Shown here: in pieces, positions 53-4,139 of the stretch
Position numbering within the stretch: position 1 is the first letter of the stretch
Layout: every line of letters starts with the position of its first letter
Sequence record: FJ539133.1
DNA from: Qubevirus faecium
DNA: 4,243 nt
Direction: 5' to 3' (one strand)
Notes under the pieces: model-generated
The model's database searches: none
Told to the model about the DNA's origin: nothing
Seen by the model: the letters and a program-made list of their open reading frames with translations, nothing else
Made by a program: the position numbers and the translations under genes

Positions 53-1378
53 ATGCCAACCCTTCCGAGAGGTCTTCGCTTCGGATCGAACGGCGAGGTC
101 GTTAACGACTTCAACGCGCTCTGGTTTCCAGAGCGCGAAACCTTCGACTCCGGGCTTGGATCCTACGAACTCACTGGTTACGTAAGTAATCAGCCGGGAT
201 ACGAGACACGCATGCGTAATCCTAGCATGCATTGTATTCGTACACCGCACAGAAGTACGGTGCCAGTTAACCATCTTGGTTACAGGCCTGTTACGACTGT
301 TGAGTACACTCCTAATGGGACTTTCATCCGCCTTGACGGGGATGTGAAGTTTTCCGGTGGAGCGGTCAGTGGGTCGCTCAAACTTAGCAACTATGTTGTT
401 AACTTGGCGGCCCAGGGTGGCTTCGATTACCAGTCGGTAATCGGTCCAAGGTTCTCTGCGCAATTCGCTGCGTTCAGTACCAAGTATGGTACGTTACTAG
501 GCGAAGGGAGAGAAACACTTAGTTATCTTCTCCTGCTGTTTCGCAGGGTGCGTGAAGGGATCCGCGCTGTAAAGCACGGTGATCTCAAGCGCCTCAGGAA
601 TCTGATACGTACGTTCGAGCCGCGCTCCGTTCCCGGAAAGCGGCAAAGAGCATCGTTCTCAGAAGCCTATCGCGACAGAACTGCCAATGGCAGTTGGAAA
701 GACAGTAGTGCGAGTGACCTGTGGTTAGAATTCCGTTACGGGTTGATGCCGTTATTTTACGACATCCAGTCCGTAATGGAAGACTTCATGCGTGTCCATA
801 AGAAGATCGCGAAACTTCAGCGATTCTCTGCAGGACACGGCAAGCTAGTTGAGGTAAAGGGTAAGTTCTTCCCTGATCCTCACTTCGCTCTTGAGGTCAC
901 CGCAGTGTTGCAGCGGCGTCATCGTTGGGGGGTGATATACCAGGATACTGGTTCGTTCGCCACCTTCAATAATGGTCGGCTAATCCCGGTGAGGGATTGG
1001 CAGACAGCGGCTTTAGCACTCCTTAATCCCGCCGAGACTGCTTGGGAGTTAACTCCTTACAGTTTCGTCGCGGATTGGTTTGTTAATGTAGGTGATATGC
1101 TCGAGCAGATCGGCCAGCTCTATCGCCATGTCGACGTTGTCGACGGGTTTGATAGAAAGGACGTGAAGCTCAAGAGCGTGTCGGTACGTGTCATAAGAGA
1201 CGACGCGACGCACACGTCTTTCAGCTTAGCTGGAGCGGTGTTGTTGCATAGTTTCTATTCGCGCGTGCATACCGTTGCGTTTCCGCAAATCTCACCACAA
1301 CTCGATACTGAGATACGTAGTGTTAAACACGTAATCGACAGTATTGCCCTTTTAACTCAGCGTTTTAAAAGACGCTAA
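53..1378 (+). CDS. A2: Maturation (A2) protein; in Qbeta-like phages also the lysis effector
   Basis: 441-aa ORF, ATG start, TAA stop, first gene after the 5' UTR. The translation (MPTLPRGLRFG..., LWLEFRYGLMPLFYDI, AWELTPYSFVADWFVNVGDMLEQIGQLY, VVDGFDRKDVKLKS, LLTQRFKRR) closely matches the Qbeta A2 protein as I recall it. Confidence 0.93.
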   Translation: MPTLPRGLRFGSNGEVVNDFNALWFPERETFDSGLGSYELTGYVSNQPGYETRMRNPSMHCIRTPHRSTVPVNHLGYRPVTTVEYTPNGTFIRLDGDVKFSGGAVSGSLKLSNYVVNLAAQGGFDYQSVIGPRFSAQFAAFSTKYGTLLGEGRETLSYLLLLFRRVREGIRAVKHGDLKRLRNLIRTFEPRSVPGKRQRASFSEAYRDRTANGSWKDSSASDLWLEFRYGLMPLFYDIQSVMEDFMRVHKKIAKLQRFSAGHGKLVEVKGKFFPDPHFALEVTAVLQRRHRWGVIYQDTGSFATFNNGRLIPVRDWQTAALALLNPAETAWELTPYSFVADWFVNVGDMLEQIGQLYRHVDVVDGFDRKDVKLKSVSVRVIRDDATHTSFSLAGAVLLHSFYSRVHTVAFPQISPQLDTEIRSVKHVIDSIALLTQRFKRR

Positions 1379-1396: not shown

Positions 1397-1795
1397 ATGG
1401 CAAAATTGAATAAGGTTACGCTTACCGGTATTGGTAAGGCTGGAGATCAGACTTTAACTCTTACACCGCGTGGGGTAAATCCCACTAACGGCGTGGCGTC
1501 GCTATCTGAAGCTGGAGCTGTTCCGGCGTTGGAGAAGCGAGTAACTGTGTCAGTTGCTCAGCCATCTCGTAACCGTAAGAACTATAAGATCCAGATTAAA
1601 CTCCAGAACCCGACTGCATGCACGAAGGACGCATGCGACCCTTCTGTGACGCGTTCCGCGTTCGCGGACCTAACGCTGTCGTTCACGTCGTATTCTACTG
1701 ACGTTGAACGTGCGCTAGTTCGCACTGAACTGGCAGCTCTGTTGAAGGATGATTTGATTGTCGATGCTATTGACAATCTTAATCCTGCATACTGA
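1397..1795 (+). CDS. cp: Major coat protein
   Basis: 132-aa ORF separated from A2 by an 18-nt intergenic region (TTTTGGGTCAATTCGATC) that resembles the Qbeta coat initiation region. The translation (AKLNKVTLTGIGKAGDQTLTLTPRGVNPTNGVASLSEAGAVPALEKRVTVSV...NPTACTKDACDPSVTR...LNPAY) is Qbeta/SP-like, including the two Cys of the disulfide-forming loop. It ends at TGA 1793-1795. Confidence 0.95.
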   Translation: MAKLNKVTLTGIGKAGDQTLTLTPRGVNPTNGVASLSEAGAVPALEKRVTVSVAQPSRNRKNYKIQIKLQNPTACTKDACDPSVTRSAFADLTLSFTSYSTDVERALVRTELAALLKDDLIVDAIDNLNPAY

Positions 1796-2389
1796 GCAGC
1801 GTTACTGGCAGCCTCGCCGGGTGGCGGGAATAATCCCAACCCTGGCGTCCCGGATAGTCCGAACGTCAAGCCGCCTGGCGGTACAGGCACCTATCGGTGC
1901 CCGTTCGCCTGCTACCGCCGTGGTGAACTCATCACGGAGGCTAAGGACGGAGCTTGTGCGCTTTATGCGCTTGGCAGTGAGGCCATAGTTGAGTTCGATT
2001 ACGCTCTTGAGGATTTCCTCGGGAACGTGTTCTGGCGCAACTGGGACGGTCGCTTATCGACATACGATATCGACACTCACCGTCGTTGTCGCGGTAACGG
2101 GTACGTTGACCTAGACGCAACCATGATGCAGTCAGACGCTTATGTATTGTCTGGCGCTTATGATGTTGTCAAGATGCAACCACCCAGTATCTTCGACTCC
2201 CCTAGGTACTACCTCCATCTAATGGATGGTATCTATGTGGACTTAGCCGAGGTAACGGCATACCATTCTTACGGAATGGTCATTGGCTTCTGGACAGACT
2301 CTAAGAGCCCGCAGCTGCCAACCGACTTTACGCGTTTTAACGGGCGTAACTGCCCCGTACAGACCGTAATCGTCATACCCTCACTTTAA
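1397..2389 (+). CDS. A1: Minor capsid protein A1 (coat read-through protein, about 330 aa)
   Basis: Same frame as coat. No stop between 1796 and 2386, and no ATG/GTG/TTG in the first 77 codons of the extension, so independent initiation is unlikely. The extension begins with a Gly/Pro/Asn-rich linker (SPGGGNNPNPGVPDSPNVKPPGGTG) followed by GTYRCPF...CRGNGYVDLDAT...AYHSYGMVIGFW...CPVQTVIVIP, which parallels the Qbeta A1 extension (PGTGKYTCPF...CRGNGYIDLDAT...AYHADGVIVGFW...CPIQAVIVVP). The total of about 330 aa compares with 329 aa for Qbeta A1. Confidence 0.85.
1793..1795 (+). promoter_or_regulatory. Leaky UGA stop codon of the coat gene (translational read-through site)
   Basis: The coat frame stays open for 197 further codons after TGA, to TAA 2387-2389. 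The local context is TAC TGA GCA. In Qbeta the coat UGA is occasionally read as Trp to make A1. Confidence 0.8.
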
Positions 2390-2404: not shown

Positions 2405-2424
2405 TAGCATGTCTAAGACAGCTA
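2405..2424 (+). promoter_or_regulatory. Replicase translational operator hairpin (coat-protein binding site spanning the replicase start codon)
   Basis: TAGCATGTCTAAGACAGCTA folds as an 8-bp stem (2405-2408 and 2410-2413 paired with 2417-2424), with a bulged A at 2409 (the A of the AUG) and a 3-nt loop UAA (2414-2416). The geometry and sequence match the Qbeta operator AUGCAUGUCUAAGACAGCAU. Confidence 0.7.
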
Positions 2425-4139
2425 GTCACAAGAAGAAAATTACTCAAGCATTGAGTAAGGTCGACATCAACTTTGAAGACGACATCCATATGTCTATTGC
2501 CAATGACCTCTTTGAGGCCTACGGCATTGCACCTCTTGCGTCGGCGGAGCAGTGTATCAGCACTCCGTTCCCTGACACTTCAATGGACGCTGATGCATTT
2601 CGCATCCATTACCTGCGTTCAGAGATCCTTAGCAAGTTCAGTGCGCACCCTCTCGGTATTGATACCGAAGCGGCCGCCTGGGAAAAGTTCCTGGCTGCCG
2701 AGGAGGGTTGTAGACAAACCAACGAACGTCTCACTAAGGTTAAGTACCATGATAATTCCATTTTGTCATGGGGCGAGCGTGTTATTCACACTGCTCGTCG
2801 AAAAATACTTAAACTGATCGGTGAGACTGTCCCGCTGGGGGATGTGGCGTTGCGCGCCCGATTTTCGGGAGGCGCTACGACCTCGGTTAACCGTTTACAC
2901 GGTCACCCGTCGTGGAAGCATGCCTGTCCGCAGGATGTAACCAAACGTGCACTGAAATACCTAATGGCCTATAAAAAGGCCTGTGGTGACGTCGTTGATT
3001 TACGCGTCAATGAGGTGCGCACTTCAAATAAAGCAGTCACTGTTCCAAAGAACAGCAAAACTGATCGTTGCATTGCCATCGAGCCCGGCTGGAATATGTT
3101 TTTCCAGTTAGGCGTAGGTGCTGTGCTCCGCGATAGGTTGCGCCTTTGGCAGATTGATCTTAATGACCAATCTGTTAATCAGCGCCTCGCACGCGATGCG
3201 TCGCAGTTGGACCATTTGGCCACTGTCGACTTATCAGCAGCAAGTGATTCGATAAGCTTACGGCTTGTTGAATTGCTAATGCCGCCTGCTTGGTTTGATC
3301 TCCTGACCGATCTCCGATCGGACCAGGGTGTCCTGCCAGATGGGCGTGTCGTTACTTACGAGAAAATATCCTCCATGGGTAATGGCTACACTTTCGAGCT
3401 GGAGTCGCTAATCTTTGCGGCCCTAGCCAGGAGTGTGTGCGAGTTGTTGGACCTTGACCAGTCAACCGTCAGCGTGTACGGTGATGATATAATCATCGAC
3501 TCACGTGCCGCTGATGTCCTGATGGCGGTTTTTGAGTATGTTGGGTTCACGCCTAACAGAAAGAAGACTTTCATTAAGGGCCCCTTTAGAGAGTCGTGCG
3601 GTAAGCACTGGCACTCCGGGGTTGACGTAACGCCCTTTTACATACGCCGCCCAATCCGTTGCCTAGCCGACATGATACTTGTTTTAAACAGTATATATCG
3701 GTGGGGCACGATTGACGGGGTGTGGGATCCTAGAGTACTGCCTGTGTACCAGAAGTACGTGAAGCTGCTACCAAGAGATTGGCGGCGCAACACTATACCT
3801 GATGGTTACGGTGACGGTGCTCTCGTCGGATTGGCCACGACTAACCCATTCGTTATCGTCCGGAATTATTCCAGATGGTATCCTGTGTTGGTTGAGGTCC
3901 AGAGGGATGCTAAGCGTCACGAGTTTGGCAGTTACTTATATGCCTTGCTGCGTGACCGCGAAGCACGTTACAATCCCTTCCTGCGTACTGCAGATGGGAG
4001 TGGGTTTGATGAAACACCGCTAGCTACTAGCCTTCGTCGCAAGACAGGTCGGTACAAAGTGGCGTGGATTCAGGACAGTGCCTTCATCCGGCCCCCTTAT
4101 TTTATTAAGGGAATTCCCGAGGTGAAGCTTGCGAGCTAG
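2409..4139 (+). CDS. rep: RNA-dependent RNA polymerase (replicase beta subunit)
   Basis: 576-aa ORF, ATG start, TAG stop. Contains the D-x4-D motif A (DLSAASD, 3228..3248) and the catalytic YGDD (3477..3488). The N-terminus MSKTASHKKKITQALSKVDINFEDD and much of the sequence are Qbeta/SP replicase-like; the length equals what I recall for the SP-group replicase. Confidence 0.95.
   Translation: MSKTASHKKKITQALSKVDINFEDDIHMSIANDLFEAYGIAPLASAEQCISTPFPDTSMDADAFRIHYLRSEILSKFSAHPLGIDTEAAAWEKFLAAEEGCRQTNERLTKVKYHDNSILSWGERVIHTARRKILKLIGETVPLGDVALRARFSGGATTSVNRLHGHPSWKHACPQDVTKRALKYLMAYKKACGDVVDLRVNEVRTSNKAVTVPKNSKTDRCIAIEPGWNMFFQLGVGAVLRDRLRLWQIDLNDQSVNQRLARDASQLDHLATVDLSAASDSISLRLVELLMPPAWFDLLTDLRSDQGVLPDGRVVTYEKISSMGNGYTFELESLIFAALARSVCELLDLDQSTVSVYGDDIIIDSRAADVLMAVFEYVGFTPNRKKTFIKGPFRESCGKHWHSGVDVTPFYIRRPIRCLADMILVLNSIYRWGTIDGVWDPRVLPVYQKYVKLLPRDWRRNTIPDGYGDGALVGLATTNPFVIVRNYSRWYPVLVEVQRDAKRHEFGSYLYALLRDREARYNPFLRTADGSGFDETPLATSLRRKTGRYKVAWIQDSAFIRPPYFIKGIPEVKLAS

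Follow-up and report, generated by a model that had tools for sequence, protein, structure and literature searches.

The lysis gene L of MS2 (Emesvirus), a type II or L-like Sgl, comprises about 75 codons, starts in the +1 frame inside the 3′ end of the coat gene and crosses the gap between coat and rep into rep. Its start lies a few tens of nucleotides before the coat stop, its start codon is held in a hairpin, and its translation is coupled to coat termination. In L-like Sgls a cationic domain comes first, at the N terminus, and a hydrophobic domain containing an LS dipeptide comes after it (bioRxiv 10.1101/2023.10.16.562596); related phages share the start, stop and length of L-type genes (PMC7693330). 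The lysis protein of Qbeta is A2 (PMC7693330), a maturation protein that doubles as an Sgl and inhibits MurA. Candidates for further sgl genes were screened by Chamakura et al. 2020 (PMC7693330) as ORFs of at least 25 codons with an ATG, GTG or TTG start, a Shine-Dalgarno (SD) sequence and a predicted TMD. Most of these candidates were inert on testing, even those that passed every criterion, and ~10% of those pre-selected for SD and TMD were functional (PMC7693330; bioRxiv 10.1101/2023.10.16.562596).

The 4243-nt stretch of DNA analysed here, hereafter the window, is a complete genome (plus strand) of Qubevirus faecium, a Qbeta-like RNA phage and group IV allolevivirus. Its full-length identity is 90.7% with NL95, 83% with FI strain HB-P22 and 78–80% with SP/FI; identity to Qbeta, M11 and MX1 is ~68–70% in a partial alignment. 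The replicase is an exact match to ACT66756.1 and the maturation protein to ACT66753.1 (Qubevirus faecium). The coat cistron has the Qubevirus (allolevivirus) layout, with a Levi_coat domain, a UGA stop and an in-frame read-through domain homologous to that of Qbeta A1. These gene assignments (Table 1) agree with the annotation of every relative retrieved. A search of the whole genome against Rfam at E ≤ 1 gave no match, and an exact look-up of the coat protein sequence for near-identical contigs found none on record.

The relatives compared were NL95, HB-P22, SP (three records), BR1, BR8 and FI from group IV and M11, Qbeta, MX1, FrHibiscus and FrSangria from group III, together with two MAVO metagenome contigs found through a degenerate pattern (DNLNPAY-UGA) and three Logan contigs reached via the replicase cluster (L024, SRR17509918_1643; L025, SRR24138264_319; L026, SRR30895314_3197). 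Among viral contigs, the pattern of coat C-terminus plus UGA returned only FI and SP again. Among metagenome contigs it returned 8 loci, of which only MAVO01000006 and MAVO01000019 are real Qubevirus sequences, the others being chance matches. In the first of these (MAVO01000006.1), an SP-like contig, the read-through frame ends after 720 nt, versus ~996, which could be due to a premature stop, a frameshift or an assembly error. The replicases of the three Logan contigs cluster with the window replicase at ≥90% amino-acid identity, whereas their nucleotide identity across coat-A1 is only 76–79%, and their read-through linker resembles that of HB-P22; a mosaic or recombinant relationship is possible, as are uneven rates between genes.

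Table 1. Positions of genes, signals and structures in the 4243-nt window
Feature	Position	Strand	Basis or remark
A2/maturation protein	53-1378	+	PF03863; 46% identity to Qbeta A2
Coat protein gene	1397-1795	+	PF01819 Levi_coat, E=4e-56; leaky UGA 1793-95; annotation of relatives
AAGGA, SD-like pentamer	1745-1749	+	8 nt 5′ of TTG; derives from coat codons Lys117-Asp118
In-frame TGA shutting the +1 frame directly before TTG	1755-1757	+	
Predicted RNA hairpin, 10-bp stem 1756-65/1769-78, 3-nt loop 1766-68	1756-1778	+	Local fold; RNAalifold on 14 genomes
+1-frame ORF, 76 codons, TTG start, TAG stop	1758-1988	+	Judged a chance, strain-specific frame
TTG start of ORF	1758-1760	+	
In-frame ATG	1764-1766	+	From coat codons GAT GCN (Asp-Ala)
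+1 codon TTA	1779-1781	+	T1780 is the third base of coat Leu128 (CTT)
A1 read-through extension, real coding frame under the ORF	1796-2389	+	PF16814 Read-through, E=1e-39; phrog_7959; Qbeta A1 domain PDB 3RLC/3RLK, E=9e-43
TAG stop of ORF	1986-1988	+	
Replicase	2409-4139	+	Protein identical to ACT66756.1

Position and signals of the +1 frame

The initial annotation had described a 76-codon ORF with a TTG start in the +1 frame over the coat/A1 junction, placed like MS2 L and with an AAGGA 8 nt upstream of the start. Coordinates and register confirm the ORF (1758-1397 = 361 = 3x120+1, hence +1 relative to coat), and the pentamer lies where it had been reported. The ORF starts ~35 nt before the coat stop; 38 nt of it overlap the end of the coat gene and the other 193 nt the beginning of the A1 read-through extension. 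The likeness to MS2 L also holds, in that both have ~75 codons and begin in the +1 frame inside the coat 3′ end, a few tens of nucleotides before the coat stop, in a region that is base-paired. The two differ in where they lead: MS2 L crosses the coat-rep gap into rep, whereas the ORF stays within the coat gene and the A1 extension and ends 421 nt short of rep (2409), with no rep overlap.

The SD-like AAGGA is a by-product of the coat Lys-Asp codons and is absent from most relatives, occurring only in NL95 and two of the Logan contigs (L025 and L026); elsewhere the corresponding sequence is GCGGAT, CAGGAT or GCTAGT. It is also predicted to be mostly paired. All but the first base of AAGGA fall within AGGAU (1746-50), which pairs with AUCCU (1782-86) in the local MFE fold. 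The bases of the in-frame ATG are invariant across a 14-sequence alignment and the three Logan contigs, and in relatives this ATG opens only a 5-codon mini-ORF.

Predicted product compared with lysis proteins

The predicted product (MSMLLTILILHTEQRYWQPRR…) contains 13 Arg and no Lys and has a pI of 12.0. The longest stretch of uncharged hydrophobic residues is at the N terminus and 10 residues long (MSMLLTILIL), half of a membrane-spanning length, with the Arg-rich part after it. The best Kyte-Doolittle mean over 19 residues is 0.73 and, at the resolution of this crude hydropathy scan (not TMHMM), the earlier statement that the product lacks a full-length transmembrane helix is borne out. Relative to L-like Sgls, the ORF product has the reverse domain order, only 10 hydrophobic residues and no LS dipeptide. 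Searches of the product against Pfam and PHROGs at E ≤ 1 gave no match, and its exact sequence is absent from a collection of 15 billion proteins. Because the frame is closed in every relative compared, as described below, no meaningful homologues are to be expected.

Measured against the criteria of Chamakura et al. 2020, the ORF has the length and the start codon (76 codons, TTG); its candidate SD, AAGGA with an 8-nt spacer, is predicted to be mostly paired and is absent from most relatives, and by the hydropathy scan the product has no TMD. It resembles the inert embedded sgl candidates of that screen (PMC7693330) in lying in an alternate frame, in having at least 25 codons and in being preceded by an SD-like sequence; unlike the screened candidates, it falls at the TMD filter.

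The initial annotation had also argued that Qbeta-like phages lyse via A2, and for Qbeta itself this agrees with PMC7693330. The window encodes an A2 homologue, which is presumed to provide the lysis function of this phage; for group IV the basis is the GenBank notes for NL95 and FI together with the 46% identity to Qbeta A2. With this homologue present, a separate lysis gene would not be required. Qbeta A2 shares nothing with the ORF.

The +1 frame in relatives, against chance and under selection

We regard the ORF as very probably an accidental +1 open frame of one Qubevirus faecium strain and not a gene, and its peptide as presumably either not made or without function. The earlier judgement of most likely non-functional is supported by the closure of the frame in relatives and by the lack of synonymous suppression. 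In 16/16 relatives, drawn from both Qubevirus species, the +1 frame carries a TGA at window positions 1779-81, seven codons past the TTG (codon 8); the sample of close relatives behind this count is small, and its nearest genome (NL95) is 9% divergent. Stops in close relatives, which the initial annotation had named as evidence against a gene, are found even in NL95 (90.7% identity). The conserved TGA depends on the third base of the Leu128 codon (CTG/TTG) and the AA of the Asn129 codon (AAY), so relatives have only a 7-codon mini-ORF (TTG TCG ATG CNA TYG AYA AYC TGA). The window alone has CTT, which turns the triplet into TTA: the ORF is open here because a silent G-to-T change at 1780 (CTG to CTT) removes the TGA. 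Further +1 stops are scattered downstream in relatives, at codon 177 in NL95, 180 in HB-P22, 137 in SP, BR1 and BR8, and 173–176 in Qbeta-type genomes (173 in Qbeta). In contrast to L-type genes, then, the start, stop and length of this ORF are not conserved.

A single base thus decides the ORF, and that base is G in all 16 other genomes of both species. T1780 might accordingly have arisen by error in sequencing or cloning, or might represent a minority variant, the real population carrying CTG and the ORF not occurring in nature. We consider this quite improbable, as CTT is a legitimate synonymous codon and the neighbouring third-position differences from NL95 (1768, 1771 and 1774) are ordinary variants common to SP. 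An error at 1780 would only strengthen the conclusion that the ORF is not a gene.

The G at 1780, replaced by T only in the window, also keeps a conserved mini-ORF (ATG, 4 codons and TGA) along with the +1 TGA. Its conservation could stem from a preference for the CTG codon, from the local RNA structure or from an 'ambush' stop kept out of frame.

The length of the accidental frame was set against chance by permuting synonymous codons within coat-A1 over 5000 rounds, with the protein and codon usage kept. The longest +1 ORF reached at least 76 codons in 7.1% of the 5000 shuffles (P=0.07); for the longest +1 run free of stops the figure is 12.2%. A length of 76 codons is not beyond chance expectation. 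The initial annotation had expected open alternate frames here on account of a GC-rich sequence, and both halves of this expectation hold: GC content around the ORF is 0.57–0.58 versus ~0.51, the highest of the genome, and few +1 stops are expected. The amino acids of the read-through linker (AALLAASPGGGNNPNPGVPDSPNVKPPGGTG…) permit only ~3 +1 stops per 97 codons, against ~18 in the 330-codon cistron. Across 14 genomes, 0–3 +1 stops are observed in codons 128–225, where 1.4–3.6 are expected from the amino-acid sequence alone, and we found no consistent depletion of +1 stops in these codons.

Long alternate frames are not peculiar to this locus. The plus strand of the genome carries 8 other alternate-frame ORFs of at least 30 aa, including ones of 114 and 73 aa, a count in line with the >10 ORFs of at least 25 codons in each levivirus genome (PMC7693330). 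Two of them served as controls. The longest on the coding strand (2473-2817, +; 114 aa), in the +1 frame of the replicase gene, contains 1–3 stops in 8/8 relatives checked. The other (3802-4023, +; 73 aa, ATG start), in the +1 frame of the 3′ part of the replicase gene, is open only in the window and NL95, with two or three stops in HB-P22, SP, BR1, BR8 and the three Logan contigs. Judged by these comparisons, the long alternate-frame ORFs of this genome are strain-specific accidents. Two ORFs on the minus strand (29-463, 144 aa; 1582-1890, 102 aa, the latter overlapping the ORF region) were set aside because the minus strand of these phages is not known to act as mRNA.

A different possibility is that a conserved +1 gene lies in the read-through linker and starts past the TGA, the window ORF being an N-terminally extended version of it. 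A GTG near A1 codon 142, for example, would give 83–95 codons in SP, BR1, BR8 and FI, and long +1 runs follow codon 128/137, extending to codon 237 in FI, 240 in MX1, 225 in SP and 226 in MAVO01000019. In 6/7 group IV genomes, +1 stops are slightly less frequent here than in the shuffles (P=0.03–0.34), although these genomes are phylogenetically non-independent. The ends of the runs are nevertheless scattered (158, 173–181, 196 and 219–240), and the run is just 36–39 codons long in NL95, HB-P22 and MAVO01000006. The GTG is a by-product of Gly codons with no SD upstream, and in group III no stop depletion is seen (P=0.4–0.86). Synonymous diversity is not reduced, and A1 amino-acid divergence peaks exactly here. 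We therefore reject such a downstream-starting gene, whose probability we put close to nil, and return to the reading of an accidental frame.

The initial annotation had proposed looking for suppressed synonymous change in the coat/A1 frame, and this check was negative, which favours a non-functional ORF. Among seven group IV genomes, synonymous differences in the coat/A1 frame amount to 0.298 within the ORF and 0.317 outside it (Mann-Whitney p=0.74), and a 21-codon sliding window revealed no dip in synonymous diversity across 1758-1988. Amino-acid divergence of A1 is 0.26 within the ORF versus 0.15 outside, with its peak inside the ORF, the opposite of what is expected for a doubly coding stretch. 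Within the ORF, the window differs from NL95 at 14 sites, of which 9, 4 and 1 are third, first and second positions of A1 codons, respectively; these differences are 9 synonymous and 5 nonsynonymous in the A1 frame, against 4 and 10 in the +1 frame. For the 66 differences from HB-P22, the corresponding counts are 34 and 32 in the A1 frame and 17 and 49 in the +1 frame. By these counts, substitutions track the A1 frame and ignore the +1 frame.

Elsewhere in coat-A1, the lowest synonymous diversity of group IV is found at 1595-1700, coat codons ~66–101 (0.19–0.25 versus a mean of 0.31), which may reflect RNA structure or some other non-coding constraint within the coat gene.

The hairpin at the ORF start and the origin of the frame

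The predicted hairpin at the start of the ORF lies inside the C-terminal codons of the coat gene, 15 nt before the leaky UGA, and RNAalifold on 14 genomes returned the same 10-bp stem as the local fold. Across these 14 Qubevirus genomes, 95% of cells are compatible with its pairing, against 13–45% in slid-register controls. Compensatory double changes occur at 3 pairs of the hairpin, one pair, for instance, being G-C in 6 sequences and A-U in 6. There are 12 double-change cells, compared with 4.0 in column shuffles, a number reached in 0/500 shuffles.

Aligned column for column, the Qbeta counterpart of the hairpin is 1706-1728, with its tip at 1711-1723 and compensatory changes between groups III and IV. 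Qbeta 1711-1723 is stem-loop 23, of the 'CP-sandwiched' class, in a cryo-EM genome model (Chang et al. 2022, PMC8880383, Table S2), and on this alignment the hairpin at 1756-1778 corresponds to that stem-loop. Contact with the capsid is seen only for the Qbeta stem-loop, the window hairpin being a predicted structure.

Both the TTG at 1758 and the ATG at 1764 sit in the 5′ arm of the hairpin. With the start codons in a stem and AGGA predicted to be paired, independent initiation would be hindered. By analogy with MS2 L, reinitiation by ribosomes ending at the coat stop may be compatible with a paired start. Along these lines the ORF could be a newly born, strain-specific accessory or lysis gene whose basic peptide of 74–76 aa acts on the host; the hairpin would be opened by ribosomes that end at UGA 1793-95 and then start again from ATG 1764 or TTG 1758, as has been proposed for MS2 L. 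The topology is right, the SD-like AAGGA is well spaced, the N-terminal 10 residues are hydrophobic, and a strain-specific function is compatible with non-conservation. Sgl genes, moreover, evolve rapidly and arise de novo in many parts of the genome, and for a few of those that work no TMD or RBS is predicted (PMC7693330). We nevertheless hold a newborn gene to be highly improbable. The open frame is unique to one genome and bears no selection signature, and its product has no segment of TM length, no LS dipeptide and a domain order opposite to that of L. A homologue of A2, the Qbeta lysis protein, is already present in the phage, and even among candidates pre-selected for SD and TMD in the published screen, only ~10% were functional.

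A narrower version of this idea, fainter still in our estimation, is that G1780T has just created a 76-codon proto-gene at an MS2-L-like position, expressed by reinitiation at the leaky UGA, whose basic peptide would slightly influence either the host or read-through. If true, the de novo birth of a gene in an ssRNA phage would here be caught at its very beginning.

For the accidental frame that we favour, an origin can be proposed from the coding sequence itself. The coat C-terminus (…LIVDAIDNLNPAY*) forces the +1 triplets at the start of the ORF, with the TGA arising from Leu-Ile, the TTG from Ile-Val and the ATG from Asp-Ala. In this strain, the silent G-to-T change at 1780 removes the Leu128/Asn129 TGA, and the +1 frame stays open until the next stop at 1986. 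On the way it crosses the linker with which the read-through domain begins, a stretch high in GC and in Gly, Pro and Ala that by its nature offers few +1 stops. These coordinates do encode the C-terminal end of the coat protein, followed by the leaky UGA and the N-terminal portion of the A1 read-through domain, and they carry the conserved hairpin. The frame over them is closed in the relatives, is free of constraint and lacks the features of lysis proteins.

Together, these findings mean that the coat/A1 junction of group IV Qbeta-like phages holds no second, MS2-like lysis gene and that the four-protein annotation of A2, coat, A1 and replicase stands. The ORF is also an example of how a single synonymous change can open a long alternate frame in a GC-rich, Gly/Pro-rich linker. 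Sgl genes are thought to originate from frames of this kind, although this one shows no sign of having become a gene.
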